Shown in pieces: positions 1 to 20,121 of a stretch of DNA of 64,000 nt (position 1 is its first letter; each line of letters opens with the position of its first letter). Both the position numbers and the translations under genes were made by a program. The stretch is from NCBI GenBank assembly GCA_010015585.1, contig ML975162.1; one strand, written 5' to 3'. The notes beneath the pieces are model-generated. The model searched no databases, was not told the DNA's origin, and worked only from the letters and a program-made list of their open reading frames with translations. Source of the DNA: Eremomyces bilateralis CBS 781.70. Its lineage: Eukaryota.

Positions 1-1234
1 TCCGCATCCTGGATCGGGTTCTGCCGGCTGACACGGACACGCATTACGGGATACAAGCGCAAGGCCCTCGGCGATCCTTCCGCCAAGCTGTCGGGGGATG
101 CTCCACGGGCGCACTTCACCAACATCTTCTTCAGTGAGATCATCTCGCCACTGCTTCTGATTGTCGTCTGCCTGATCCCGTACTTGTTTATCAACGCACA
201 GACGGGCGTGAACGAAAACAATAACCCCGACAAAGAGCTCGAAGCCACGAACTCGCTCATCCGCGTTGGCATTGTGGCTTTTGCACCCGTCGCCGTCAAC
301 GCTGGCGTTCTTGGAGGGATGTTTGCCCTGGCTTGTTGCGCGGGTCCTTTGCTGTCCATGTGTTGCAAAAAATTCGGCGCTGTCCTTGCCGCCATCGCCC
401 ACGCCATCGCAGTCATCATGCTGCTTGCCTTCTTTGAGGTCATGTTCTTCCTTGAAGGCTGGTCATTCAGCAAAGCCGTGCTCGGAATGATCACGGTCGT
501 TGCTATCCAGCGATTCGTTTACAAGCTGATCATCGCTCTGGCTCTGACGCGTGAATTCAAAGCGGACGCTTCGAACATCGCATGGTGGACGGGCAAATGG
601 TACGCCATGGGTTGGCACACTATCTCTCAGCCGGGCCGTGAATTCCTCTGCAAGATCACTGAGCTTGGCTACTTTGCAGCGGACTTCATCCTAGGACATA
701 TCCTGCTATTCATAATGTTGCCCCCGCTGCTTGTCCCGTATATCGACAAAGTCCATTCGGTTATGCTCTTTTGGCTGCGTCCAAGGTATGTTATGCAACA
801 TTATGTACTTGAAGGCTATCAACTAACGTCCATACAGCCGACAAATTCGACCTCCCATCTATTCCCTCAAGCAGACCAAACTCCGTAAACGACGCGTCAT
901 CCGCTACAGCATCCTGTACTTCACCATGCTGATCGTGTTCATCGCGTTGATTGCCGGACCTCTCGTTGCTGGCGGCGCTCTGAAACTTGAGGAGATGAAA
1001 ATCGAAATGCAGCTCCTGCAGCCTAGCAAGATGGAGAACAATGACACGCGGGGCTACACTAAGACCGGCCGTACACTAGAAGACCCCGAAGCCACTGCCG
1101 GCGGCGGAGGTATCGATAGCACGGAATCCAGTGGCGGCGGTGGCGGTAGCGCCACAGAATCGGCCGGCGCTGATACCACCGACAGTCCATTTGCATCCGA
1201 CAACCCATTCCCCGCACGTTATGTGATGTACTAG
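1..1234 (+). CDS. FKS1: 1,3-beta-glucan synthase paralog, 3' portion only (5' part lies outside the window); exons <1..785 and 838..1234
   Basis: Colinear with 12180-13412 of the full FKS1 (roughly 90% identity by eye). It has the same last intron (GTATGT 786..TACAG 837, branch CTAAC), an open frame, and ends ...[15 protein letters not shown]. Confidence 0.93.
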
Positions 1235-1309
1235 GGGAGCAGTGGACGGGTGCGACGCAGTGAGAGAAAACGAAGAATAAAATGGATTATGCGCGGAAGC
1301 TCTCTCAAG

Positions 1310-1436
1310 ATGGCCAGTACGTGTTTCAACCGGAAGATGATTATTGGGAGCACAGAATACTGATCTATGCAGAATCAAAGAACTCCTCCCAGCATAGCCA
1401 GTCCAAGAAGAATCACCGTAATGGATACGTCGCGAT
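1310..1436 (+). pseudogene. RPL29: Truncated RPL29 pseudogene (exon 1, intron 1, exon 2, start of intron 2)
   Basis: Near-identical to 16692-16821 (MA/KSKNSSQHSQSKKNHRNG). The intron-2 donor GTACGT is mutated to ATACGT at 1425, and homology stops at about 1436. Confidence 0.9.
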
Positions 1437-1514
1437 TAGGGTGGGTGAAGAATTCAATGAAATCTATTGTTGTTTTAATTGGCTGGTGAGATTTGTCCCC
1501 AACATTTTGAGATG

Positions 1515-1650
1515 TCGTATATCTGCAGGGCCGGAGCTGGGCAGGGGACCAGGCTTCGAGATAGAACACACAACTTACACAATACAACTCTGCTGCTTGA
1601 TGATCAAGTTACCCTGAAATCCATATATATTAGCATGTCTCAATGCGACA
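1515..1650 (+). mobile_element. Diverged or partial LTR related to the solo LTR at 1656-1849
   Basis: Shares CGTATATCTGCAGGGCC and ATAGAACACACAACTTACACAATACAAC with 1727-1788 and ends TGCGACA at 1650. The 5' end is not resolvable. Confidence 0.6.
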
Positions 1651-1655
1651 CCACA

Positions 1656-1849
1656 TGTCGCAGACCAAGGCATAATCTATAGGAGCCTAAGGCTACAAAC
1701 TGCATTAATAACCTTGCCATGAGTCTCGTATATCTGCAGGGCCAGGGAACCGGGCATTCACATAGAACACACAACTTACACAATACAACAACTTTGCTGC
1801 TGTCACCAAATCACCTGACCCCAACCATTTTAGCACTGCCCGTGCGACA
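1656..1849 (+). mobile_element. Solo LTR of an LTR retrotransposon (194 bp)
   Basis: TGTCGCA...TGCGACA perfect 7-bp inverted termini (TG..CA), with a near-identical inverted copy at 6269-6466. The 5-bp flanks are CCACA and GAATC. Confidence 0.82.
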
Positions 1850-2311
1850 GAATCTTATCGAGACTGCACAGCCAGAGCCCAGAGAGGTATTAGCCCTCTT
1901 TGGAGCTGATTGGACCGCCACTGGTTGGCAGGGGGGAGCAATCTCGCCGTATTAGACATTGGTGTATCAGGCATGAGTGTTGTCCTCCTTGGACCGTCCG
2001 ATCATCCCTAATTGAAGAAGAGGAGTACAATACAATACATCAGATCTCCAGGGACCAGTACGGACACTCAGTGGAAAGGGAGTAGCATGGAGAAGGACCA
2101 AAGATCGAAAGTCACCCTCCATGGGCAAAATCTCAAGAGTCAAGAGTCAAGACCAATGGTCTTTATTAACTGTACACGCTAATCGCAAGCTAGATCCGAT
2201 GCGAATTGCCCACGATTCTGTGGTATTATTAATGGGATTCTGGAAGGTGTGGAGACGCGGCCGAGATTCTATCCGATCCTCAATTTCCCAGTTCCAACAT
2301 GAAAGAAAATC

Positions 2312-2564
2312 CATGGCCCCTCCGGGGGGGACGAAATTGAGTTACGTCTCTTGGCATTCCCCCAACCATCACCACCATCACAGGCAGGCCCAATTCGCTC
2401 AAAAACAACATAATACCAAAAAGTATACTCTTTTCCTAACTAAGCAACTACTAGAGGTCTGTTTTGGTGAATTCTCCGCCGCGTTCTGGTTAAGATCGTG
2501 GGAACTGTGCATAGGGGAATGCCAAGAAAGGTAACTCAATTTCGTCTCCCCCGGAGGGCACATG
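2312..2564. mobile_element. MITE-like element (about 250 bp) with about 50-bp terminal inverted repeats
   Basis: 2312-2362 CATGGCCCCTCCGGGGGGGACGAAATTGAGTTACGTCTCTTGGCATTCCCC pairs with the reverse complement of 2514-2564 (few mismatches). No clear TSD. Confidence 0.6.
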
Positions 2565-5500
2565 CGGTGTCGAACTGTCAGTCTGTCAAACGTGAAATCT
2601 GAAAACTGAAAAGGAGCTGCAACAGTTCCTGGCTCCTTCGCCTTTCGGGTCGTCCGCCGGTTTTCGACCCCAAATTCCCCCCCTTGGTCGCCTCCCCCCC
2701 TTGGCCCTCGAGCCTCGACCATCAGTCCATCACTTGCTTTGTTCGGATTTCTTACCTCCTCGACCTTTCCTTATTTGGGCTTCCCCTGGAGCCCCTGGTT
2801 CATTTGGGCCGCGCCCCTAACTTACAAAAGGTCAGTGCGCAGAATCCGCCTCGGATCGAGTGGTTGTCATTGGCTGGATTGTCGGATCGAGTGGAGTGAC
2901 CGAGAGTAGGAGTGGTTCGCTGTTGCCCGCTGGGTGCTGGGCTGCTGGCGTTCCAGCACAATGTCGTCAGTCTCCCAACCGAACGTCTGAAATGCGCGAA
3001 CAACGCAGCACTCCAAGTTCTTCAAATCCAACCTGAATGAAGTCCCACCGGTCGGTCAACGTTCAGAATATCCCACGATCAGGTACTACTATCAGTCCGG
3101 ACAGTCCAACCGAACTGGTGTGACGTGTAAAGCGTCCTTTGTAGTCCTGAATCCGTACAAACGATAGAGGCCCACGATGCAATTATCGCGTGGATTGTGG
3201 CTTGTGACTTGTGAGCTACCGCTCAACGGTGGCAAAATGCCGATCTTACTTATAGGAGTCAAGAACCCACAATCATGAATCCAGAGTTCTATCGGATATC
3301 CAGTGTCTCATCGTGCGGTTTCTAAAAGTAGTCTGTAAAATTCATAGCTTCCCCTAGAAAATGGGCATCGATATGGGTCCAAAGGAAGATTTTCACACCA
3401 GTTCCACACACGCGATCAGGGATTCAAAGTAGATCCTAAAAGGACCTACCTTGCTAACTTAACGGTCTCGAATGTACCGTGAATCGAATATCGATCGTGA
3501 AGGGATTTGATGCTGAAGGTTCCGCATGCTGCTGTCCCGACCGCTCCAGAGTCCAAACTCCAGACGTATCAGAATTTATTCAAATCGCTCAACGCCACTG
3601 ACATCGGCTGCAAGAGGTCTGGCGTGCCGGCGGTTTGTCTCTGCAAGATCCGCCCGTGAAGCGCCAGAACGGCTAGGCCCACCTCTGTGGGCTTGTGGCG
3701 CTCTGCTCAACGACAGGAGTTCACGTTTGTATCCCAGCCACGCAGAGTCCCGGGGTTCCAGGAACGATATGAAGTCCGAAGTTCAACGGTCTCTGCTGTA
3801 AGCCTGTGACACAAGAAAAGGGGATGCGTCATTAATAATGCCGGAGAAGCGTGCAACCGAGCAGCAGTCCAGCTCGGGAGCTGTGGTGTGGAATGGACTG
3901 GAGTACTGCATCGTCCTCATGCTATGACGACACATCCTCCTCTACCAACATGTATTTACAAGTATCAAGTATTCAACGGAGTTGGTCGCCCATTATTTTG
4001 CTCTTCCAGTTGTACGATTTCTTTCCAAAGCTCACTCGCTTTCTACAATAAAGAATTCTTGGTATATAATAGCCAAGGAGCCCATATGGCCTTCGATGCG
4101 CCTGCGGTTGACTTTGGGACCGGCGACATGGGTGTTTGGGTGGGTAACAATTAAACACTGTGTGCCCTGCAATTTACCGGATTTCCACAATACAGCAAGT
4201 GGATGGTTGGGCGACGTCACTCTGCGCAGTAAAGAATTAACCGCGCCCTGGATCTCGCCCCACACCTGCCGGTGGCAAACATGAACACCGGATGGTGTGG
4301 GGCGGACATGGGGCACGGTTACCGTCTTCCGTAATATTGGCTACTTTAAGACGAAATTTCTGGACGCTCATCGGGAGACGGGGCCTGCATTTCTAAGCGG
4401 GTCTGAGTTAACCAGGTCCAAGGTGTGGCAAGTGGCAGCTTCATATTCACTGTTCAGTTCTGAGTTCACAGCGAGACAGCCCGACAGGGGTGCGCATTTG
4501 AGGACCAGCCTTGCCAGCGAGTACATATACGTCATCCTTCAATTACTTGGCGGGTATGATATTGGTATTGACTTAACGCTTCCAGAAGACGCATAGATAC
4601 ACATACCGTATCATATCCATCAGAATATCGCTTAGAGGAGACCTGCTGATATCATTCATAAGATTCGTTTGACTAGTTCTCAACGATAGGACCGGCTACC
4701 TCAATCGCTCCATTGACCCAGCAGCCACAGTAGCTAGTGACCCTTCATCTCTCAAGAATGCATCTGGACCGAGGACAATGGTAGTCTCGCGTTCTTACTA
4801 TCAAAATTGGCAGTCGACACAGGTTCCAGTGCCATTCCCATCGGATACCGCCCACCCTGCTAGAACCAGTTCGCTTTGTGGTGGGGACATATCTTTCAAT
4901 GAAAAACTATGGTGTCGAAGGGCTTAGATGCGAGGCGGAGACGCTATCGGTCATGCGTCGGGAGAAATTCCCAGAACTTCAAAAGGAGTTCAGCAGGGAC
5001 TGGGCCTCAGTTGGCAAGTAGGATTTTTGTGCTCAATATAAAATGCGGATTGTAGGTGTTGGATTCCGGTGACTTTCGCATTCTTCTGGTACTATCAAAT
5101 GGAATACCTATTTGCTTTGGTACGGTCCAAGTACTCCCGAGACATGGATGGAAGTTTTTGAATCATGAAGTTCAGTGAGAAGCAGGAGAACTTCTATAGC
5201 CTCCAGAATGGTCCAGCTAGTGGTTGGAAGCCTTATGAACTTGATTGCGGAAACGGCTCATTGAATCTTAGTCAACGGTCAACCGCATATTGAGCCATAA
5301 CCAAGAAGCGGCCTAAGGAGTCGATGAAAAGTGTCCGTTACCCTAACCGCTATACCGGTCGGTAGCTTGACTTAAGAAAGACTGAGATGTAAAGGAGCGA
5401 ACTGATCCTTCCGAACAAGTGAATGGTAGTAGTGTGTTTGGAAAATGGAACATATATTAAGGTCTGCTCAGAAAGAGAAACTCATCTAGTCTTCCTGGGG

Positions 5501-6268
5501 AATTGAGGCACGTTAAGACAGGATTATAGACGTTGAAATGAAATAGGACAGACTTTGGACTTGATTGCCAGGACTTGATTTAACCTCAAAGGCAATGGAT
5601 ATAGTAGACATAGTAATAAGAAATAGAGATAAAGTAAATAAATAGTATGTTGGACGTTGGGAAATGGAAATGTCGCGTTTCAATACTGGTCTAATGATAG
5701 AATCAACATCATCCCTTAACATTATACATAACAATCTTGTGCCCTTGTACTGCGAAAGCAAAATGTTGTGATTTGTAGTCGGTTCTTCCAATTATTTGCC
5801 CGAGCTATACCAGTCTTTTTCAAATAATATTTTTTGTCTCTTTTAAACAAAACGACGGCAAATTGACCTCCATTTTGGGCGGTTTGTGACGCCGTTTTGG
5901 AGGTAAATCTGCCACACTCTGACGCCAATCAGAACTCCCCTTACTCTCCGACATGGATCTCTTCAACATGGATATTCTGTGATAGGTCCCAGGCCTGTGG
6001 CCTGAGCCCCTAAGTGTGGCTGATGGGTTGCGGGCAGATTATCAGAAAAGGAGTCATGTATGAGCAAGTGTGTTAAAATAGCGGAGGAGAGAGCCAATAT
6101 CTCACACACAAAGGTGCGAGGGGATTTCCTCTTTTCTTCTCCCTCTTCAGTTTAGGTCAATGGACCTTGGTAATCGCAGACCTTGCGCATCCAAACCGTG
6201 TGTCACTGCCAAGCTTTACGCATGGGTTAGTCATCCGTACTGGTAATTTACCACCCAGGGAAATGTGG

Positions 6269-6466
6269 TGTCGCACGGGTAGTGCTAAAATGGTTGGGGG
6301 TCAGGTGATTTGGTGACAGCAACAAAGTTGTTGTATTATTATTGTGTCAGTTGTGTGTATGTGAATGCCCGGTTCCCTGGCCCTGCAGATATACAAGACT
6401 CATGGCAAGGTTATTAATGCAGCTTGTAGCCTTAGGCTCCTATAGATTATACCTTGGTCTACGACA
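6269..6466 (-). mobile_element. Solo LTR (198 bp), inverted copy of 1656-1849
   Basis: The reverse complement aligns end to end with 1656-1849 with about 7 substitutions and 3 small indels. Flanks on the + strand are TGTGG and GATTC. Confidence 0.82.
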
Positions 6467-7172
6467 GATTCTCTCAATAATAATAAGATTCCATTTCTCC
6501 ACTCTCAACCCTTGCTTGATCCCCTGTCCTCAACCTGGAGTGTAATAGCAATACACAAAGTATTAAAAAACAAGGCCTATTCCCTGTAAATAACGTGACT
6601 CCTTGTGAGGTGTGCCAGAGGGAGCCCAGAGGTTGTGAGTGCGATTCAGCGGCTGTGCATTTTCACCCTTCGGCCGTCGCAGTTCTGAATTCAGGCTTTC
6701 ACCCTTCACCAGGACCCTTCACGCGCCCCTCGCCCATTTGCCCATCCGCCCACCCACTTCCCCTATCTTTCAACAGAACCTGCCAACAAACCCGCTTCTT
6801 CCTGTTCTCCACTTCCTCCTTCGTCACCCTCTTCTCTTTCTCCCTTCTCTCGTTTCTCTCCTCATCCTCGACTTCCTCTAATCTCCTCCTCCCGGCTTCG
6901 ATTGATTCTGTCCGGGAGACCGCTCTTAACCAACGTTGCGCACCATCCAACCCAGGAGATCTCTCACTCGTTGACTTCTCCTGTCATCTGTCGCTCGCTG
7001 CAAATCATCTCCACAACAACATCATCACGATCTCCCATTTCACATTCCTCAGTGCTGCCTTTCGTTCATTGCGAATTTCCACTGCTGAGTTGATCTCTAC
7101 TCGACGACAATTCTTTCTTGCCGATTAATTCGAGGATCCTGTGCAACTAACTGGTCATGATCCAAGTTTGAA

Positions 7173-7333
7173 GTGAGTGGATCCTTCACCCCAACCTTCC
7201 AAACCGGTTCGCCTGTCAACGCGTTTCAGGAGCAATCCTGAGGCGTGTCCTGCCGCAACCCGCGCCATCAACTTTTACTCACCTGATGTCGTTGAATACT
7301 ATTTGCTGACTTTCGCATCTTGATCCTTCGCAG
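7173..7333 (+). other. Probable 5' UTR intron of FKS1
   Basis: GTGAGT donor at 7173, GCTGAC branch near 7305, and CAG acceptor at 7331-7333, 34 nt before the ATG. Confidence 0.55.
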
Positions 7334-7367
7334 GTTGTCAACTCGTTTTTCTATTCTTTGAGCAGCC

Positions 7368-10300
7368 ATGTCGGGACAACCGCAGCAGGGCTATCACGAC
7401 GACCGTAGCCATGTCCAGGGCCAAGGTCAGGCCACAGGTCAGGCTCACGGTCAGGTCCCGGGCCAGGGCCACGGGGAAGAGGCCTACTACGACGACCACA
7501 ATCAAGCCTATTATGGCCAGCAAGGTTACGATCAGCAACAACAGCCCGGTGATGCATACTATGATGAATCGTACGCCATCCCTCATCGCTCGACTGCCGC
7601 ATGATTTATCCGCTGATTTGACTGCAGAGGCTATTACGACCAGAATGGACAGACACCCCACCCGAATGACACCTACTATGACAATCAAGGCTATCAAGAT
7701 GGCTACTACGACGACCGCTATTACGATCAAGGTCATCCGGACCAGGGAGGACATGGCTATCACGAGTTCGTGTTTTTTGACCCCGCGAACTCAAACCTCA
7801 ACTAACGGCATTGCAGCGGTCAGCCGAGGGGCCACGGGTACGAGGAAGAATCCGAGACTTTCAGCGACTTCACGATGCGCTCCGACATGGCTCGTGGTGC
7901 CGACATGGACTATTACGGACGTGGCGACGAGCAATACAACAGCTACCATGACGGCCACGGACGTGGATACCGCCCGCCATCGTCCCAGATCTCCTACGGC
8001 GCCAATCGCTCGTCGGGTGCGTCCACCCCCATCTATGGCATGGAATATCAAAACGCACTTCCTGCTGGACAGCGCTCAAGGGAGCCGTACCCTGCCTGGA
8101 CTTCGGAGGCCCAGATTCCTCTCTCCAAGGAAGAGATCGAAGACATCTTCCTGGAACTCACCGCAAAGTTTGGCTTCCAGCGAGATAGCATGCGAAACAT
8201 GTACGATCACTTCATGACTCTGCTTGATTCGAGAACGTCTCGTATGCCGCCGAACCAGGCCCTTCTCTCGCTCCATGCCGACTACATTGGCGGCGACAAC
8301 GCCAACTACCGCCGCTGGTACTTTGCGGCGCAGTTAGATCTCGACGATGCTGTTGGATTTTCCAACATGAAACTAGGCAAAACGAACCGTCGAACCCGCA
8401 AGGCCCGCGCCAAAGCGAAGAAGAACGCCCCACAGAATGAAACCGAGACTCTGGAAGCGTTCGAAGGTGACAACAGCTTGGAGGCGGCCGAATACCGTTG
8501 GAAGACGAAGATGAACCGGATGTCTCAGCACGACCGGGTTCGTCAGATCGCTCTCTACCTCCTCTGCTGGGGAGAGGCCAATCAGGTTCGCTTCACACCC
8601 GAGTGTCTCTGTTTCATCTTCAAGTGTGCGGACGACTATCTCAACTCGCCTGCGTGCCAGCAGCGTGTGGAACCGGTGGAGGAGTTCAGCTACCTCAACA
8701 ACGTCATCACTCCGCTCTACCAGTTTATCCGTGATCAAGGATACGAGATCCAGGATGGCAAGTACATTCGTCGCGAACGCGATCATTCCAGCATTATCGG
8801 TTATGACGACATCAACCAACTGTTCTGGTATCCGGAGGGCATCGAGCGAATCGTCCTGGAAGACAAAACCCGTCTCGTCGATCTGAAGCCGGAGGAACGC
8901 TACGTGAAATTGCACGAGGTCCAATGGAAGAAGGTATTCTTCAAGACATATCGAGAGACTCGGTCCTGGTTCCACCTAATGGTCAACTTCAACCGAATCT
9001 GGGTCATCCACATTACCTCATTCTGGTTCTACACCGCCTTCAACTCGCCACAGCTGTACTTGACGGAACCATACGAGCAGCAGATCGACAACCAACCTCC
9101 AAACCCGTACCGTTGGTCTGCCGTCGGTCTCGGTGGTGCCGTTGCCTCGCTCATTATGATCATTGCCACCCTCTGCGAATGGATGTACGTTCCCCGAAAA
9201 TGGGCTGGAGCTCAGCACCTAACCAAGCGACTCTTGTTCCTGATCGTCGTCTTCATTATCAACCTTGCTCCCAGCGTCTACATCTTCTTCATTGCGAAGA
9301 ACAAGACCAGTAAAGTCTCCCACATCCTCGGTATCGTCCAGTTCCTCATTGCCCTGGCCTCGTTCTTCTATTTCTCCATCATGCCGCTTGGTGGGCTTTT
9401 CGGAAGCTACCTCAAGACAAATACGCGCCGCTACGTCGCGAGCCAGACCTTCACCGCAAGCTATCCACGTCTGAAGGGCAACGATATGTGGATGTCGTAT
9501 GGTCTGTGGGTCATGGTATTTGCCGCAAAATTGGCGGAATCGTACATCTACCTCACGCGGTCCTTCCGTGACCCGATTCGAATCTTGTCTACGATGAAGC
9601 TCTCCTCATGCCTTGGCGATGAAATTATCGGCACCATTCTTTGCTACTGGCAACCGAAGGTCCTACTCATCGTCATGTTCTTGACGGATCTGACCCTCTT
9701 CTTCCTCGATACCTACCTGTGGTACATCATATGCAACACCGTCTTCTCCGTCGCTCGTTCTTTCTACCTCGGCGTCTCCATCTGGACCCCATGGCGAAAC
9801 ATCTTCTCTCGTTTGCCGAAGCGTATCTATTCCAAGGTCTTGGCTACGACTGACATGGAAATCAAGTACAAACCGAAAGTCCTCATCTCCCAGATTTGGA
9901 ACGCTGTCGTCATCTCGATGTACCGCGAGCATCTCTTAGCCATCGATCACGTGCAGAAGCTCCTCTATCATCAGGTTCCATCCGAGCAGGAGGGCAAGCG
10001 AACCCTTCGCGCCCCAACCTTCTTCGTCTCGCAGGAAGACCATTCCTTTAAGACCGAGTTCTTTCCGTCTCAGAGCGAGGCGGAACGACGTATCTCCTTC
10101 TTTGCCCAGTCTTTGTCTACTCCAATTCCCGAGCCTCTGCCGGTCGATAACATGCCCACGTTCACGGTTATGATTCCCCACTACGGCGAGAAGATCCTCT
10201 TGTCGCTTCGTGAGATCATCCGAGAGGACGAGCCATATTCCAGAGTCACTCTGTTGGAATACCTCAAGCAGCTCCATCCTCACGAGTGGGATTGCTTCGT

Positions 10301-13300
10301 CAAAGACACTAAGATTCTCGCGGACGAGACCTCCCAGTTCAACGGCGACAATGAGAAGAGTGAAAAGGACACCCAGAAGAGCAAGATCGACGATCTTCCC
10401 TTCTACTGCATCGGTTTCAAGTCTGCTGCTCCCGAGTACACGCTGCGGACTCGTATCTGGGCTTCGCTTCGATCCCAGACTCTGTATCGTACCATCTCTG
10501 GTTTCATGAATTACAGCCGTGCGATCAAGCTGCTGTACCGCGTTGAGAACCCTGAAGTGGTGCAGATGTTTGGCGGCAACTCCGACAAGCTTGAACGCGA
10601 ACTGGAGCGCATGGCTCGCCGAAAGTACAAGATCGTCGTGTCCATGCAGCGATATGCCAAGTTCTCCAAGGAAGAACGTGAAAACACCGAGTTCTTGCTC
10701 CGCGCGTATCCCGATCTTCAGATTGCCTATCTCGATGAAGAACCGCCGGCGAACGAAGGCGATGATCCTCGTATCTTCTCGGCTTTAATCGACGGTCATT
10801 CGGAGATCATGGAGAACGGCCTAAGGCGTCCCAAGTTCCGCGTTCAACTCTCCGGCAATCCCATCTTAGGTGACGGCAAATCCGACAACCAGAACCATGC
10901 CATCATCTTCTACCGTGGCGAATACATCCAGCTCATCGACGCGAATCAAGACAACTACCTCGAAGAGTGCTTGAAGATCCGATCCGTTTTGGCCGAGTTC
11001 GAAGAAATGACCACCGAAAACGTTTCGCCGTACACCCCTGGCGTCGAACGCGACAAGATCGAGCCCGTGGCTATTCTTGGTGCTCGCGAGTACATCTTTT
11101 CGGAGAACGTCGGAATTCTCGGTGACGTTGCCGCCGGGAAGGAACAAACGTTCGGTACCCTGTTCTCTCGTACTTTGGCTCAGATTGGCGGTAAACTTCA
11201 TTACGGCCATCCGGATTTCCTGAACGGCATCTACATGACGACTCGTGGCGGTGTCTCCAAAGCTCAGAAGGGTTTGCATCTCAACGAGGATATTTACGCT
11301 GGTATGAATGCGCTCATCCGTGGTGGTCGCATCAAGCACTGTGAATATTACCAATGTGGTAAGGGTCGTGACTTGGGCTTCGGCTCGATTCTCAACTTCA
11401 CGACGAAGATCGGCACTGGTATGGGAGAGCAGATGCTTTCTCGCGAATACTACTATCTCGGAACACAGCTCCCTCTCGATCGGTTCCTGTCCTTCTACTA
11501 CGCTCACGCCGGTTTCCACGTCAACAACTTGTTCATCATCTTGTCGGTGCAACTTTTCATGTTCGCCGCCATCAATCTTGGTGCCCTCCGACACGAGACC
11601 ATCACTTGCAAGTACAACTCGCGTGTCCCGATTACCGATCGTCTTTACCCAACGGGGTGCGCCAACACGGCACCGATCTTGGACTGGATGGAACGTTGCG
11701 TCGTTTCGATCTTCATCGTCTTCTTCATCTCGTTCGTCCCTCTTGTCGTCCAGGAACTGACCGAACGTGGCTTCTGGCGTGCTGCGACCCGTCTTGCGAA
11801 GCACTTTTCGTCGTTGTCTCCCCTCTTCGAGGTGTTCGTCTGCCAAATCTATGCCAATTCCCTGCATTCGAATCTGTCGTTCGGTGGTGCTCGATACATC
11901 GGAACGGGTCGGGGCTTCGCTACTGCTCGCATCCCCTTCGGTATCCTCTACTCGCGGTTCGCCGGCCCTTCCATCTACATGGGAGCGCGTCTGCTTATGA
12001 TGTTGGTATTCGCCACGCTGACCACCTGGTCCGTCTTCCTGCTGTACTTCTGGATTTCGCTCCTAGCTTTGTGCATCTCGCCGTTCCTTTTCAACCCCCA
12101 TCAGTTCGCGTGGAACGACTTCTTCATCGACTACCGTGAGTACCTCCGCTGGCTCTCCCGTGGAAATACCAAGTCGCACTCCGCATCCTGGATCGGGTTC
12201 TGCCGGCTGACACGGACACGCATTACGGGATACAAGCGCAAGGCCCTCGGCGATCCTTCCGCCAAGCTGTCGGGCGATGTCCCACGAGCGCACTTCACCA
12301 ACATCTTTTTCAGTGAGATCATCTCGCCTCTGCTTCTGATCATCGTCTGCCTGGTCCCGTACTTGTATATCAACGCACAGACGGGCGTGAACGAGAACAA
12401 CAACCCCGACAAAGAGCTCAAAGCCACGAACTCGCTCATCCGCGTTGGCATTGTGGCTTTCGCACCTGTCGCCATCAACGCCGGCGTTCTGGGAGGCATG
12501 TTCGCTATGGCTTGCTGCGCGGGTCCTTTGCTGTCCATGTGCTGCAAGAAATTTGGCGCCGTCCTCGCCGCAATCTCCCACGCCATCGCGGTCGTCATGC
12601 TGCTTGCCTTCTTTGAGGTCATGTTCTTCCTTGAAGGCTGGTCATTCAGCAAAGCCATGCTCGGAATGATCACGGTCGTTGCAATCCAACGATTCGTCTA
12701 CAAGCTGATCATTTCGCTGGCTCTAACGCGTGAATTCAAAGCGGACGCTTCCAATATCGCATGGTGGACGGGCAAATGGTACGCCATGGGTTGGCACACC
12801 ATCTCTCAGCCGGGCCGTGAATTCCTCTGCAAGATCACTGAGCTTGGCTACTTCGCAGCGGACTTCATCCTCGGACATGTTCTGCTGTTCGTAATGCTGC
12901 CGCCGCTACTTGTTCCGTACATCGACAAGGTCCATTCGGTTATGCTGTTTTGGCTGCGCCCAAGGTATGCTATGCAACAATGCGCTTGAAAGCTTTCCAA
13001 CTAACATCTATGCAGCCGACAAATCCGACCGCCCATCTATTCCCTCAAGCAGACCAAACTCCGCAAACGACGCGTCATCCGCTATAGTATCCTGTACTTC
13101 GTGATGCTGGTCGTGTTCATCGCGCTGATTGTCGGGCCTCTCGTTGCTGGCGGCGCCCTGAAGAACCTTCCGGAAATTCCGTTGAATCTCCTACAGCCTA
13201 CCAAGATGGAGAACAACGACACGCGGAATTATTCCAAGACCGGCCGTACGCTGCAAGAGCCCGATGAAACTGCCGGGGGCGGAGGTACTGGTAGTACGGG

Positions 13301-13412
13301 ATCCGTTGGCAGCGCCAGCAGTGGCGGTGGCGCCTCTGAAACGGCCGGCGGTGGTACCCTCAGTCCATTTGCATCTGACAACCCATTCCCTGAACGGTAC
13401 GTGATGTACTAG
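7368..13412 (+). CDS. FKS1: 1,3-beta-glucan synthase catalytic subunit (GT48); exons 7368-7570, 7628-7765, 7817-12964, 13016-13412
   Basis: 1704-aa ORF with FKS motifs ([59 protein letters not shown]). Three GT-AG introns with branch sites join the Gln/Tyr/Gly-rich N-terminus and the C-terminus in frame. Confidence 0.98.
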
Positions 13413-14111
13413 GGGGGAGCAGTTGACGGGTGCGAGGTGGGTGAGAGAAAACGAAGAATAGAATGGATTATGACCAAATTCAAAGATAAGAGCGCCGAAA
13501 ACGATTCGGCTATGCATCATTGTATGATACACACAGCGGTTGCACGGGGTGGGGTTTCGTTTCTCGGCGGTGCATGTTTGTTTCGTCGGTTCCTGCTTAT
13601 CATTACTTCGCATCGAACCATGGGAGGGAAGGGGAGGAGCAGTCTAATGAGTGGTATTCAACAAACTGCGCGTTTATTCTCATCTTGTTGTCCCGACTCC
13701 GGGGAGAGTTAACTGTGTATTGGCGAAAATGGGGAACATGGGTTTGGTCGTTCCAGTTTCTAATGCCGTGCCCTTCGGTATGAGATGCAGTCAAATAGAA
13801 TATCAGATTACTCCAAGACCCAGCTCGACATATGTAGACTGTGATTTATAGGACTTGAGGCATGCTATTGCGGTTCGACGTCAGGAGAGGCTCTCCATTA
13901 GTTCTACCTTATGTCGCTACATCAATCGCATTGCATCCCGGATTATTCGCAGCGAGGTTCACATTAGGGAGTTCTGTCTGTATTCTCCTCGCTAGTTGAT
14001 ACTTAGGTATCTGCTCCCCGAAAAAACCTGAAGCTATATCTGTACTCATTGCCACTGCACCGACTACGACCAGGACGCATAGCTTCTGGGAGCATTTCAT
14101 AGGGAAATTAC

Positions 14112-14123
14112 AGTCACGTGACT
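14112..14123. promoter_or_regulatory. Palindromic E-box AGTCACGTGACT upstream of LCB1 (bHLH site, Cbf1/SREBP-type)
   Basis: Perfect 12-bp palindrome about 340 bp before the LCB1 ATG. The factor assignment is inference. Confidence 0.35.
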
Positions 14124-14460
14124 TTTGGGCCGTCAGCGGAAAAGGAGTTGATCATGACATGGGCATTTAGGTTGGAAAACCATCAGACAGATAGATCGTC
14201 CTTTGGTATTTTATAGGGCTGCTTCACGCACTTAACCATTGAACTCCGTGACATGGTGATGAATCTATGGCAATAGGAGCGCCTCCACCATAACCCTCAT
14301 TACCTTCTGCAGCGATTTCGCGCCCTGAACCCTCTCCTCGAATCCGCATTTACATCAGTATCCTTCCGCGCATCGCTGCTCCTGTCGCTTCCGACTCCCT
14401 CTCCTATAGACCGCCAGCTCTTCCCGAGACACCGGCATAGAAGCAGCGCAGCCGTACATC

Positions 14461-16213
14461 ATGAACGCCTTTCTCCAACCCCTCGGAAACGCCACCACCT
14501 CCGACCTCTTCTCCAGCGTGAGCACCTCCTTCTCCCGCGTCCCCGGCTCCGCCATCATCGCGCGATACATCCGATCGTCGTATCAGGACGACCCCGTCCG
14601 GTCGGCGGTCGAACTCTTCCTATTCCTCTTCGCGTTGCGGTATATTATCTCGCCACGGTATGGCGTGCGCGGCGGCAAGAAAGGCGGCGGGAAGGTGGAG
14701 TTGAGGGACGATGAGATTGAGGATCTGGTGGAGGAGTGGACGCCTGAACCTCTGGTTGGGGAGCTTACAGAGGCAGAGCTCTCGGAGGAGAAGAGCAGGG
14801 TGGTGATTGTAGGGTGTGTATCCGTCTAGGTTATTCCGATGCTGCAGGATGCTGACAGCGGCGTGAAGACAAACCGGCCCGAAAGTCAAACTCAGCACCG
14901 GCAAAACCGTAACCAATCTCGCCTCCCTCAACTTCTACAACTTCGTCGGCTCCGAAATCCTCAAGGAGCGCGCCATCCATACCCTCCGCACTTATGGCGT
15001 CGGTCCCTGCGGCCCTCCCGGTTTCTACGGCCACCAGGACGTGCATATAAAGACGGAGCATGATGTTGCGACGCACCTAGGTACGGCGGCGTGCATCATC
15101 TACGCGCAGGCATTCAGCACGATTTCGTCGGTCATCCCGGCCTTCTCGAAGCGGGGCGACATCATCGTTGCGGACAAGGCGGTCAATTATTCGATCCGGA
15201 GGGGACTGCAGATCTCGCGAAGTCAGATCAAGTGGTTCGAGCACAACGACATGAAAGATCTGGAGCGGGTGCTGAAGGAGGTGGTGAAGAATACACCGAA
15301 GAAGGCTCCGTTGACGAGGAGATTTATCGTCACGGAGGCCCTCTTCGAGAGCACCGGCGATGTGATCGATTTACCGAAGATTGTGAGTGTGTCCCGCATC
15401 GCTGTGGTCCCCTCAACACCGAGTGCATACGGGCTAATAACGGGTTTAGGTCGATCTGAAATTCCAATACAAGTTCCGCCTCATCCTTGATGAGTCCCTC
15501 AGCTATGGCACCCTTGGTCTCACCGGCCGCGGCATCACCGAAGCTCAAAACGTCGACTCCAAGAACATCGACATGATTGTTGGGTCGCTGTCCGGTCCGC
15601 TCTGTGGCGGGGGTGGCTTCTGCGCCGGCTCCAACGAAGTTGTCGTGCATCAGCGGATCAACGCTGCCTCCTACTGTTTCTCGGCTGCGTTACCGGCTCT
15701 TCTGGCCACCACAGCAAGCGAAACGATTGCTCTGTTGCAGACGGAGGAAGGCGCCGCGCTGATGGACCAGGCTCGGGAGCTCAGCCGTCTAATGCGTGCC
15801 CAGCTAGATCCGAGGAGCGAGTGGCTCAAAGTCATGAGCAAAGAGGACAGTCCCTATATCATTGCGGTTCTGAAGAACGAAGCGATCGAGGCGAAGAAAT
15901 GGAGTCATGCAGATCAGGAGGCGATCATGCAGGACATTGTCGACGACGTAAGCTTCCCAATCGTCTTTACTTCCTCTTGATTCTCAAGCTAACCGTTCCG
16001 TGTCTACAGTGCCTCAACAAGGGCGTCCTCATCACCAAAATCAAACGGATGCCTTCCGCTCAAGGTGCCAGCGTGAAGGATTTGGCGAAAGAATGGCAGC
16101 CACAGCCAGCACTGAAGATTTGTGTCGTCGTTGGCTTGACAAAGAAAGAGCTCGAGAGTGCGGGACGGGAGATCAGACATGCAGCAAAGCGTGTGATCAA
16201 TGCCAGGAAGTAA
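14461..16213 (+). CDS. LCB1: Serine palmitoyltransferase subunit 1 (4 exons; introns near 14814-14868, 15384-15449, 15948-16009)
   Basis: YIRSSYQDDPVRSAVEL, WTPEPLV, YGVGPCGPPGFYG, SSVIPAFSKRGDIIVAD and GGGGFCAG segments typical of Lcb1, in an aminotransferase class I/II fold. Confidence 0.93.
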
Positions 16214-16535
16214 CAGCCTGGTCTATTGTATAGTTGCACTGTTAGGCGTTAATTGGTTGGGGGACGGAACGATATTTGGATGTAGCGCGCAGCGCATAGG
16301 GGGGCTTGTATCATCAATTGAAGTAATCCTAATCACTGATTCCCTTCTTGTGGGCAGGGACGGGCAGTTTGCACGAGAAATTCTGAAATATGAGGATTTC
16401 TTCCGCTAGAGTCTCTATCATGGCTTCATAGTCAATCAAACCACCGTCTTAAACCCCCCGTACTGGCGTCTTGAGCGCAAAATCGTTGTTCAACTCGTTG
16501 AAGACATTCGCGAACTGACATCAGTCAACTTATGG

Positions 16536-16563
16536 TCACGTGAAGTATTATCACGTGAAGTAG
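16536..16563. promoter_or_regulatory. Tandem TCACGTGAAGTA E-boxes upstream of RPL29 (Cbf1-like)
   Basis: Two TCACGTGA copies 15 bp apart, about 140 bp upstream of the ATG. CACGTG elements are known in fungal ribosomal-protein promoters. Confidence 0.45.
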
Positions 16564-16691
16564 TTTGGCTGGGCAACCGAAAGCGGCCTAGCTCCCACGG
16601 AATTCGCACATTCAATTCCACAGCCGAAATCAACCTCACCAAACCACCAGCGAGAAACCACCAGTCAAGTACGCGCGGAAACTTTCTCAAG

Positions 16692-17122
16692 ATGGCCAGT
16701 ACGTGTTCCAAGAGGAAGAAGAAGATTATCGGGAGCATAGAATACTGATCCATGCAGAATCAAAGAACTCCTCGCAGCATAACCAGTCCAAGAAGAATCA
16801 CCGTAATGGGTACGTCGCGATCGCACCAACGCGGACTTTCGACCTTCCATCGCTCGATCGCTGCACAAAGAAGGCTTCAATGACTGACTATTATCTTCTA
16901 TAGTATCAAGAAGCCGAGGACCCACAGGTATCCCAGCTTGAAGGGAACCGACCCTAAGTTCCGACGGAACCACAGACATGTTCTGCACGGAACCATGAAG
17001 GCTTTGGTACGTTGCGACGTCGCCCACTGCTGATCCATCTCCCGCATTTGTCGACGAGGACTCGCTAACTTGCGTGCGTTCTACAGAAGGAGCTCAAGGA
17101 GGGCAAGCGTGACACGATTTGA
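16692..17122 (+). CDS. RPL29: 60S ribosomal protein L29 (eL29); exons 16692-16698, 16758-16809, 16904-17006, 17087-17122
   Basis: Spliced product [65 protein letters not shown], with three GTACGT...AG introns. Missed as a unit by the ORF track. Confidence 0.95.
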
Positions 17123-18354
17123 GGCATATCGACGATGCACAGCGCACCATCGACATACATCGGGCAGCGGCGTCCACGGGTTTATCTGCGTTTACGATCA
17201 TGTGTATTGTCCGTCCATGGAGGGATCAATAAGTCTCTAGGAATAGGGTTCAAGTCATAACTAGAGCAGCAAAAGCACGGATTCGACCACTTGGTTCCTG
17301 TGACGCTGGGCCATTTGGCCTCGACCGTCAATCGATATTATCCTGTTCCCTTCCTTTTCCATGCGATCTGGAAACATTAGCGGGATTCTAGTTACATGTG
17401 GATGTCCCGGATGCCATGCCCGCCCTACTCGACCCTACTTCCCGCAACTCGTTCCTGCCTCCTTTCCCCCAAACGTTTTCATCCCAGGTTTTGCTCATTT
17501 GATTCATTCCCCCTTCTCCAAAACGGCATATGTGTGTACAGCGCTATACTACTTTGTGTAAAGCAGCTGAAGGATTTTTCTACGTGCCAAGATTCAATTC
17601 AAGTCCCTCCAATTACCAAACATCGCCTGCCGTTGTGGCTGTCGGTGCATGGACGGAGGGATACATTACAATTCGTGACAGCTTCACTTCCCGAATCACT
17701 TATATTCGTGGGAGTAGAGTTCCTGGGGTATTTCTTAGTACATTCTTCGGGTTTCGCTTCCCTTCGAATGCAGCTTCATTCCCAGCCTATGATTTTGTTT
17801 CATGCCCATGATGTTGGTCGCTGACTCCCCTCTGCTACAATGACCCTCGAGATTCTCGCTACTTCGTTGTGGTTTGCCCACTCCTGGCCTTGCCATGCTG
17901 ACGACCTTTCCTCCATTTGACTGGCAATTGCATCAGGGCGTTGGCGCGACGAGTCTAATTATAGATCGCGACGAAGCAACCAGGAGCGAATCGGTAACTT
18001 TCCCAGGAGCTTCGTAAGTCTTTGGCGATAGAAGCATTGCTTTTTCTCCCGGCGTTTTTATACCTTACCTAGTACTGTCAAATGAAGCAAGCCTTAATTC
18101 AACAATGCTACTAAGCAATATTTCCTAAAGTGCATTCACGTCAAATCAATGTGGTCGCAGGTCGTGGGCTGACCCAAAATCCTCCACTGTGATGTCATCA
18201 TACCACTCGCAGCTTCATTTGTATCTCGACTTGGGCTCTATTCTCTACCACTGGAAGTTGTGTTCTTAGAATATAGGACATTATTCTTTGTGGACGAAGT
18301 TGAGCGCATCTTCAGTACCAAGTTTACCAATGTCCAACCCTCCATCTCTCTATC

Positions 18355-18834
18355 ATGAATCCGGACGACAAGTACGATCAGATGAACGACCTACTCTTTG
18401 GCAGTGTCCCCGTTCGTGAGGCCCAAGGCAACACCTACCAGCCGAGAACTAGGTTCTATTCAATTCCAGTCAAGGATGACGATGCGCTTGTCGAAGACCC
18501 CGTTGATCCCGACAATGCTGATAGTGACGAGCAAATAGGTAAGTATTCTTTGGCTAAACGATCGCTACTATACTTAGATACTTACGCATGGCTTGTTTGG
18601 CCTATGATGAGCGTGAGGAGATCCAACACGTCCAACATCACTGGCACCCTCAGCCGAGGTGCAACTAAATGGTCGGGATCGTACGTCGAGCTTGCAGATG
18701 AAGGGACCATCATCAGCGGCACAGAAATGTGCTTCGAGACATCCTCGACGACGATGGAACCTTCCGCATCGCTAGAGGTCGGATGTGAGCACGGATGGAG
18801 CCTGGGATTGTCCTATATAGGACCAATGACTTAG
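18355..18834 (+). CDS. Hypothetical small acidic protein or gene relic
   Basis: 159-codon ORF with a plausible ATG context and a GTAAGT donor at 18539. No recognisable family. Confidence 0.25.
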   Translation: MNPDDKYDQMNDLLFGSVPVREAQGNTYQPRTRFYSIPVKDDDALVEDPVDPDNADSDEQIGKYSLAKRSLLYLDTYAWLVWPMMSVRRSNTSNITGTLSRGATKWSGSYVELADEGTIISGTEMCFETSSTTMEPSASLEVGCEHGWSLGLSYIGPMT

Positions 18835-19098
18835 AATTCAATGCCTAGCGAGACAGCTTGAACATCTTTTGGATACAATGTCGCCTCGCAACTATAAAAT
18901 CTGTCTTAATTCCCGGATAACTAGACATAAATAATTCTGCAGCTCGCCTACTAGAATCTCGCGCCTTGACTTGGATTGGTAATTCCCATGGTATTCCTGG
19001 ATCGAAATGTATGGACTAGCACTGACACTTCGATGATAATCAAATGTATTGTTCCCTCAAATAGATCAAATGCAATGCCCCAAAAAAGCCAAGCATCA

Positions 19099-20121
19099 TC
19101 ACCTCAGAATCGTCATCCCTCTTCTTCCTCTTGCCCTCTCATCTGGCCGACAAACATCCGTCTCATGGTGATCATGATACCGACACATATCCCGCTTCCA
19201 CGGCTTACACAGGCTGTCACCCGGCCAATCCCCTGTGACAACCGCCCTCCCCCTCGCCATGCACGCGCTGCAAAACGTCTTATGACAATCCCGACACTGG
19301 CCAGCGGGCACCTGCGGCCGCAGCACGTTCTTGCATACCTCGCACGCGCGAGTCTGATCCCACCCCTTGACGCGGAACGCCTCGAAGTCGTGCCGGTCCA
19401 GCGCAGTCGACTGCGTGCGCTTCAACCGCACGCACAGGTCCCGCAGGAACATCGGGTGCCACGGGTCGGCGTGGGAGGCGAGCAGGTTGTCGGTTTTCTT
19501 GAACGCGAAGAGGTCGAGGACGAGGTCCCGCACCAGCGCGTTGTCGCGGATTGTGTCGTAGAGAATGTAGGTGTCGCTCGGCGTCGGGACGGAGTTGGTG
19601 TCTTCTGCTAGTTTGGCGATCTCGTCTACGACGCAGTTTCGAAGTGCCTCGACGGAGAGACGGTCGGCAAGCCCGTAGAGGTCGAGGAGGAGGAAATATG
19701 TCGGCTTCCCATCCTTCCAGAATGCATTGGCGTCGAGTGTCTGGGTGTACACCCAGTGGATGAAATGCTCGAAAATATCCAGGCGTTCTTCCGGGAGTTC
19801 GACATGCTGCGATAAGCCCTCGGCGAATGTGCCGTTCAGCGCAGCGGAGAAGAAGGGACTGTGGTTCGTGAGAAGTTCGCGGTGGATGAGGAAGTGGACG
19901 GGTTTGGTTTTGCCGATGGAGATTTCGGCGATTGCATTTAGGTTTTTGAAGTTCGTTCTATGTTTGCTGTCGTCAGCAGTCTGGGATGCTCCTAATGTTG
20001 TGGAATGCGTGGCTTTCATGGTCGCCAGGGGAGCTGTCGACTGTCCCTTGCACCACAGCACATACCTCAATGGCTCTAAAGAAACAGACGGAGATGCCCT
20101 TTCGACCGTAGTAAAAGGCAT
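19099..20121 (-). CDS. BTB/POZ-domain protein with Cys/His-rich C-terminus
   Basis: FLIHRELLTNHSPFFSAALNGTFAEG...VELPEE...FEHFIHWVY BTB signature, plus C-terminal CxxC pairs and CRYHDH. Confidence 0.85.
   Translation of the reverse strand: MPFTTVERASPSVSLEPLRYVLWCKGQSTAPLATMKATHSTTLGASQTADDSKHRTNFKNLNAIAEISIGKTKPVHFLIHRELLTNHSPFFSAALNGTFAEGLSQHVELPEERLDIFEHFIHWVYTQTLDANAFWKDGKPTYFLLLDLYGLADRLSVEALRNCVVDEIAKLAEDTNSVPTPSDTYILYDTIRDNALVRDLVLDLFAFKKTDNLLASHADPWHPMFLRDLCVRLKRTQSTALDRHDFEAFRVKGWDQTRACEVCKNVLRPQVPAGQCRDCHKTFCSACMARGRAVVTGDWPGDSLCKPWKRDMCRYHDHHETDVCRPDERARGRRGMTILR

Follow-up and report, generated by a model that had tools for sequence, protein, structure and literature searches.

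Filamentous fungi typically have one essential FKS gene, which encodes the catalytic subunit of beta-1,3-glucan synthase, as stated in the accessible part of a review (PMC12715860). An extra gene has been described in the echinocandin producer Pezicula radicicola; in the available sections of the source papers, this auxiliary FKS1 copy lies beside the echinocandin cluster (PMC10296638), is expressed, and its deletion makes the producer sensitive (PMC10296638, PMC10320164; Yue et al. 2018 as cited in these). Saccharomyces and Candida glabrata possess two close catalytic subunits, FKS1 and FKS2 (GSC2), with different regulation, and gene conversion between the FKS paralogs is documented in C. 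glabrata, again according to the accessible text (PMC12006411, PMC12715860). Here, we analyse the FKS locus in a stretch of 64,000 nucleotides from contig ML975162.1 of Eremomyces bilateralis CBS 781.70 (GenBank assembly GCA_010015585.1), hereafter called the window, in which a complete FKS gene at 7368–13412 (copy B) is preceded by the 3' end of a second one at 1–1234 (copy A). An earlier reading of the letters alone (the original prediction) had proposed a tandem duplication with both copies maintained, recalling the single FKS of filamentous ascomycetes and the exception in P. radicicola, both of which agree with the publications cited above as far as these were available. The results presented below indicate that the duplication is real, old and lineage-specific, and that both copies are maintained. 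It is likely that an old direct segmental duplication was followed by the loss of an aminotransferase gene and by gene conversion of the 5' 4.9 kb, and that two expressed isozymes were kept for dosage or differential regulation.

The Eremomyces locus is a further FKS duplication besides that of P. radicicola, and a differently organised one, with a native location, concerted evolution and no cluster in view. Both cases concern an extra expressed FKS1 in a filamentous ascomycete, a group normally having one, but the P. radicicola copy, in the available description, adjoins the echinocandin cluster (PMC10296638), whereas here the copies are adjacent and most of the coding region is homogenised. 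In the literature searched, which excluded subscription papers, we found no on-point report of FKS duplicates in Dothideomycetes. Unlike the FKS of known echinocandin producers, which belong taxonomically outside this group, that of E. bilateralis groups with Dothideomycetes-like relatives (85–86% identity). FKS1 and FKS2 of yeasts are old duplicates and are dispersed in the genome, whereas the duplication described here is lineage-specific and its copies are apparently adjacent.

The two genes have the following parts:

1–785, plus strand: penultimate coding exon of copy A, cut at base 1, very probably by the contig end, with the first 95 nt as in copy B.

786–837, plus strand: copy A intron (GT..AG, 52 nt), removed by splicing in one contig from run X3 (joint 783->836, cut +2).

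838–1234, plus strand: last exon of copy A, ending in a TAG stop; its tail is unlike that of copy B, and two Pro residues conserved in relatives are gone.

1235–1291, plus strand: 3' flank of copy A, still similar to that of copy B, with about 53 matching letters (global alignment of 1235–1295, 61 nt, with 13413–13476, 64 nt).

6498–7367, plus strand: 5' untranslated region (UTR) of copy B, with an exon to 7172, an intron at 7173–7333 (161 nt, GT..AG) and a further exon starting at 7334; found once in the DNA runs.

7368–13412, plus strand: coding region of copy B, 1961 aa, exons 7368–7570, 7628–7765, 7817–12964 and 13016–13412, all introns backed by joints in X3.

7362–12274, plus strand: tract present twice in the reads and near-identical between the copies, with about twice the flanking word depth, scattered clusters of variants and no indels; probably a gene-conversion tract.

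Positions 1–1291 repeat 12180–13472 in the same orientation with 88.3% identity over 1303 columns (blastn, E 0.0), and the repeat search and MAFFT agree with this result. The second FKS 3' end that had been predicted as colinear with 12180–13412 is therefore present, but the similarity extends farther than proposed, running about 57 nt beyond the stop codon to 1291/13472 and resuming at 1288–1436 versus 16670–16821. Copy B shares the 3' layout of copy A (exon to 12964, intron 12965–13015, exon 13016–13412), and the 393 codons compared are stop-free in both copies, so that intron, reading frame and stop are retained as had been noticed from the sequence. The Nei–Gojobori comparison over 390 aligned codons, a check that the original prediction had proposed, gave 73.3 synonymous (Sd) and 46.7 non-synonymous (Nd) differences, dS of 0.31, dN of 0.055 and dN/dS of 0.18, with 0.09 for the membrane part (310 codons) and 0.38 for the tail (80 codons). 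The changes are thus mostly synonymous or conservative, as originally described. Within the first 311 residues, the copies differ at 16 amino-acid positions, in every case conservatively, the majority state of 156 relatives being found in copy A at 10 of these positions and in copy B at six, while the two Pro residues lost from the tail of copy A are kept by 78 and 119 relatives, respectively. These data support purifying selection on both copies in the visible 393 codons, with neither of them degenerating.

According to precomputed Pfam assignments, the deposited model of copy B (P0003) contains PF02364, PF14288 and PF23605, and the copy A fragment (P0123) contains PF02364; the combination of PF02364 and PF14288 in copy B is that of a GT48 beta-1,3-glucan synthase catalytic subunit. 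The protein is colinear with the solved Fks1 structure, including hot spots 1 and 2 and the EL4 cysteine pair, both cysteines being present.

A phylogenetic tree of the C-terminal region was constructed from 37 sequences, comprising both copies and the 35 most similar of the 156 full-length relatives. Copies A and B are sisters with support of 100/99, on terminal branches of 0.07 and 0.03, respectively. Over 311 aa they share 95% identity, compared with 84% for the next relative. The closest named relatives, with 85–86% identity, are the Dothideomycetes Lepidopterella, Glonium, Cryomyces and Lineolata.

Three public sequencing runs (X1, X2 and X3), analysed as Logan contigs, contain 84–96% of the sampled words of 1–7400. 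X1 and X2 derive from one sample and are probably DNA, while X3 belongs to another study; a fourth run with the same species label (X4) had no match to the window, and no conclusion is drawn from it. The presence of the organism in X1 is evident from a 3419-nt contig covering 2528–5946 with 0 mismatches. Logan words are 31 letters long. Word depth was 222–264 in X1 and 162–197 in X2 for the copy A 3' end, the single-copy spacer and the flank after copy B, whereas the bins of 8229–11616 had 429–554 in X1 and 294–333 in X2, and X1 contigs lying within the FKS body (9754–10619 and 11015–11551) had depths of 472 and 481. Variants in the body (8460; 10676/10682/10685; 11566/11571/11605) occur in one contig at about half of the total depth. 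The single-copy contig 5' of copy B stops at 7392 in both X1 and X2, which, with words of 31 letters, puts the branch point near 7362, about 6 nt upstream of the start codon at 7368. A second FKS body is therefore probably present in the reads from about the start codon on, and copy A looks full-length.

No inserted or deleted letters were recorded in 7368–13412 in the variant table of the run contigs. We examined 40 of its 129 variants; 37 fall within 7516–12101, and 36 of them are coding (19 synonymous, 17 non-synonymous and 0 stops). The upstream stops or frameshifts that would have spoken against a functional second copy are thus absent both from the indel record and from these 36 variants, although the reading frame of copy A itself is not seen. 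The non-synonymous variants listed are clustered in variable loops (codons 523–545 and 611–616) and just before hot spot 2 (codons 1364–1398). The divergence of the body is about 1–3% versus 12% in the last 1.2 kb. Such a sharp break between a near-identical body and a diverged 3' end probably reflects gene conversion over roughly 7362–12274. Concerted evolution is indicated by the same orientation of the copies on one contig, the sharp break and the doubled depth, with adjacency dependent on the path taken by the assembler.

The location of copy A at the very end of the contig could point to an assembly artefact, namely alleles left uncollapsed, the presence of a second strain, or a dispersed copy wrongly joined to copy B through repeats. 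We consider this quite improbable. Alleles predict half depth and homologous flanks, but the copy A 3' end, the spacer and the downstream flank have equal depth, the body has about twice that depth, and the flanks are unrelated after 1436. Since half depth and matching downstream flanks are both absent, uncollapsed alleles are unlikely, and dS of 0.31 is far above allelic variation. The comparison of read depth that the original prediction had suggested as a test for alleles thus identifies copy A as a true second copy. A mis-join through the repeats of the spacer, which have a word depth of more than 10,000 and break every short contig, would turn "tandem" into "dispersed", with the second copy remaining.

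Gene call P0123 (393 aa), made on the 641,277-bp contig of the window, matches copy A with 100% identity and opens at base 1 with Ser-Ala-Ser rather than Met. Since gene callers open models in this manner at contig edges, base 1 is very probably the contig end. Copy A is indeed incomplete in the window, as had been noticed, but not merely because of the window edge, and this assembly offers no way of completing it, since it is cut by the contig end. Over its first 95 nt the window matches copy B without a difference, while the rest of the exon differs at 8% of positions; the chance of 95 clean bases is P ~3e-4. A contig that enters an exact repeat for a fixed short way and then stops would be the usual mark of an unresolved repeat, and a near-identical tract produced by gene conversion would also account for the halt of the assembler after 95 identical bases of copy A. 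The protein collection contained, apart from copy B, no protein of 458–2000 aa exceeding 87% identity to the copy A fragment and, apart from copy B itself, no protein of 1005–3199 aa exceeding 86% identity to copy B.

Joints of the GT..AG type were seen only in X3, indicating that this run holds cDNA. The joint 783->836, in a contig with a depth of 1045, corresponds to the spliced intron of copy A, and a 547-nt contig spanning 1172–1718 with 1 mismatch is specific to copy A. In the coding region of copy B, the joints 7570->7628, 7765->7817 and 12962->13014 (depth 2669) are all GT..AG, as is the joint 7172->7334, corresponding to the 161-nt intron of the 5' UTR. The X3 joints fix the copy B model at 1961 aa in four coding exons, whereas the deposited model P0003 (1828 aa) starts at 7875 and omits the Gly/Tyr/Gln-rich N-terminal 133 residues derived from two small exons (window 7368–7874). 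Word depth in X3, a poor measure of expression level, was 800–1700 over the copy A 3' end (1–1452), 3300–3500 over the copy B 3' end and 24–40 in the spacer. In addition, non-reference letters shared with the DNA runs (7844, 8725 and 8780) are present in an X3 contig from which the first two introns have been spliced out. Both FKS copies are thus transcribed and spliced, and the expression of copy A, on which the original prediction had made its reading depend, is evident from its RNA and its spliced intron. The leader of copy B occurs only once in the DNA runs, and copy A must therefore have another leader and promoter, or diverged ones. One further X3 joint, 6201->10421 (GT..AA, side 22), was taken as a repeat artefact.

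One could suppose that copy A no longer functions and is a remnant, truncated or interrupted beyond the contig end, and that its RNA is mere read-through or a decaying transcript. Its visible part is limited to 393 codons, a long second FKS of this contig set is absent from the protein collection, the neighbouring duplicated genes have decayed, and copy A has both a tail without the two conserved Pro residues and a branch about twice as long. However, a remnant is difficult to reconcile with dN/dS of 0.09 in the membrane part, with the splicing of the intron at an X3 depth far above that of the spacer, or with the doubled DNA depth from about the ATG on without indels and without stops among the listed variants. 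The X3 contig that is spliced at the first two introns and has the variants of the DNA runs also argues against it. Overall, we regard this explanation as improbable.

The features downstream of the copies bear on the extent and history of the duplication:

1288–1436, plus strand: 149-nt piece of the duplicated 5' end of RPL29, comprising the start codon, intron 1 and exon 2; its second donor is AT instead of GT.

13473–16669, plus strand: 3.2 kb following copy B and absent after copy A, containing a class I/II aminotransferase gene (14473–16213).

16670–17033, plus strand: 5' part of the RPL29 gene and the following exon, recognised by alignment as the source of the fragment at 1288–1436.

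The fragment matches 16670–16821 at 89.5% identity (blastn), and the similarity ends at 1436, shortly before a high-copy repeat. The identification as RPL29 is based on a weak L29e match (21.6 bits, under the Pfam cut-off of 27), the alignment and the following exon (IKKPRTHRYPSLKGTDPKFRRNHRH). On the same strand as FKS, the aminotransferase gene directly follows copy B and precedes RPL29. The gene models deposited for two distant fungi, P0268 (Phaeosphaeriaceae sp.) and P0276 (Chaetothyriales sp.), are fusions of FKS with this gene, their C-terminal parts matching 14473–16210; the adjacency of FKS and the aminotransferase gene is therefore ancestral, and copy B holds the ancestral place.

These alignments show a duplicated unit of at least 9.5 kb in direct orientation, which included FKS1, the aminotransferase gene and the RPL29 5' end. 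In the simplest history, the unit of copy A then lost the aminotransferase gene by a 3.2-kb deletion, with 4 nt common at the junction, and its RPL29 piece decayed to a dead fragment, leaving only FKS intact there. The loss of the neighbours with retention of FKS is an argument for selection on the second FKS. Recurrent gene conversion would keep the first 4.9 kb (from about the ATG to about 12274) near-identical, while the last 1.2 kb has reached 12% divergence with dS of 0.31. The predicted products are two near-identical glucan synthase isozymes, which would be distinguished by their promoters and 5' UTRs, by a few loops and by the C-terminal tail, and which could be retained for dosage or differential regulation by analogy with yeast FKS1 and FKS2.

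Several considerations weigh against this scenario. X1 and X2 are possibly the assembly's own data and so not independent of it, and X3 was tagged as RNA by guess only, none of the runs found being recorded as RNA; the spliced joints are the evidence for cDNA. Logan contigs have one depth figure each, so that a summed depth is not a copy number, and they lose rare variants. The 5' 4.9 kb of copy A is known from run contigs, without the sequence of copy A itself; a stop in copy A is possible among the remaining 89 of the 129 variants; and the lack of a long second FKS in the protein collection indicates that the assembly has lost the 5' part of copy A or contains it only in fragments. A dN/dS value between two copies cannot prove present-day constraint on each. 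Finally, no listed short contig bridges the repeats at 1585–1793, 2348–2528 and 5946–6431, and the order of copy A, spacer and copy B, and hence the word "tandem", rests on the assembler. Of the duplication originally proposed, a second copy that is real, expressed and, in its visible part, under purifying selection stands, while its tandem order depends on the assembly path through three high-copy repeats.

The hot spots were located in copy B as follows:

9549–9575, plus strand: hot spot 1 as assembled, YLTRSFRDP, in gap-free alignment with F639–P647 of S. cerevisiae Fks1 (7xe4).

11682–11705, plus strand: hot spot 2, DWMERCVV, aligned with Fks1 D1353–L1360; inter-copy variants lie just upstream (codons 1364–1398).

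The hot spot 1 segment aligns to 7xe4_F 589–686 (E 9e-28), and the hot spot 2 segment matches 7xe4_F 1303–1382 (E 7e-23), the alignment examined in the latter case being that with Fks2/GSC2 9wzs_A 1322–1401. Residues were counted in the full alignment of the 156 full-length relatives, from which the copy B translation itself was excluded. At the position of Fks1 F639, the Eremomyces protein has Tyr, found in 10 of the relatives, while 144 have Phe; at the position of L642, it has Arg (codon CGG), where all 156 relatives have Leu. Among 1018 columns conserved at 98% or more, copy B departs at nine, compared to a median of two for the relatives, 16 of which have nine or more; Arg at L642 is the only radical change among these departures. 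In the accessible part of a mutational scan, F639Y confers echinocandin resistance and is the Fusarium state, L642K is validated as micafungin resistant, and F635Y in C. auris is listed with raised MICs (minimum inhibitory concentrations) in Supplementary Table 1 (PMC13147539). Eremomyces thus shares Tyr at F639 with the intrinsically echinocandin-tolerant Fusarium moulds, as described in the same available text, but differs from them in the additional Arg at L642. Hot spot 1 lies inside the homogenised tract, and no variant was found there among the 40 examined; both copies therefore probably share YLTRSFRDP.

These residues raise the question of whether the duplication was kept because it protects against a glucan-synthase inhibitor, made or encountered by the fungus, with one or both copies insensitive owing to an altered hot spot 1, as in P. 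radicicola. The rarity of Tyr at F639 and the absence of Arg at L642 from all aligned relatives, the resistance reported for F639Y and L642K in the accessible text (PMC13147539), and the P. radicicola precedent, as far as its source was available (PMC10296638), are in favour of such protection. Nevertheless, a Pfam search of 27 open reading frames (ORFs) of at least 180 aa between 6.5 and 63 kb revealed no non-ribosomal peptide synthetase, polyketide synthase, terpene cyclase or other biosynthetic enzymes; the families found, all of the housekeeping type, were BTB, KH, CP2, AMMECR1, amidoligase, MBOAT, actin-like, proteasome, NUP159, DEAH helicase and WD40. An extra target copy in or beside an inhibitor cluster, as in self-resistance of the P. 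radicicola type, is accordingly not seen over 50 kb downstream, the upstream side of copy A being outside the assembly. Copy B stands in its ancestral housekeeping neighbourhood, and a hot spot 1 that is probably common to both copies fits poorly with a pair of one sensitive and one resistant enzyme. In addition, L642R was not found in the available portions of the supplements of PMC13147539, and Tyr at F639 also occurs in 10 other relatives. Retention as protection is therefore unlikely. A fuller version, in which the fungus makes or lives with an inhibitor, has an insensitive enzyme (Tyr at F639 and Arg at L642) and a second expressed copy, conversion spreads the hot spot to both genes, and the inhibitor cluster lies upstream of copy A or elsewhere, appears distinctly unlikely; if true, genome mining for resistant targets would indicate a producer outside the known echinocandin lineages.

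Under the preferred explanation by dosage or differential regulation, two expressed FKS copies homogenised by gene conversion in a filamentous ascomycete would offer a natural setting in which to test dosage or regulatory splitting, and the unique hot spot 1 represents natural variation at a site important for drug binding. Moreover, the loss of near-identical paralogs at contig ends means that drafts of fungal genomes may contain more FKS copies than are counted.

The region between the two genes, in which the window has no N, consists of the following parts:

1513–2503, strand not assigned: high-copy repeats, including the left inverted arm at 1656–1849, with a word depth of more than 10,000 versus about 230.

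2528–5946, strand not assigned: single-copy spacer without a Pfam-recognisable ORF and with low X3 cover.

5855–6466, strand not assigned: high-copy repeat and the right inverted arm at 6269–6466, with a word depth of more than 10,000 over 5855–6292.

A word depth of this magnitude means tens of genomic copies. A Pfam search of 13 spacer ORFs and four ORFs at 16.4–18.8 kb gave nothing but the sub-threshold L29e match, and no Rfam match was obtained for 1–20000. Unspliced low-depth (24–40) X3 contigs cover 2528–6326 and could represent a weak transcript or DNA carry-over. The two inverted arms are 91.5% identical over 201 columns, so that high-copy repeats in inverted arrangement flank the 3.4-kb single-copy stretch, and a further inverted pair of 51 nt is located at 2312–2362 and 2514–2564.

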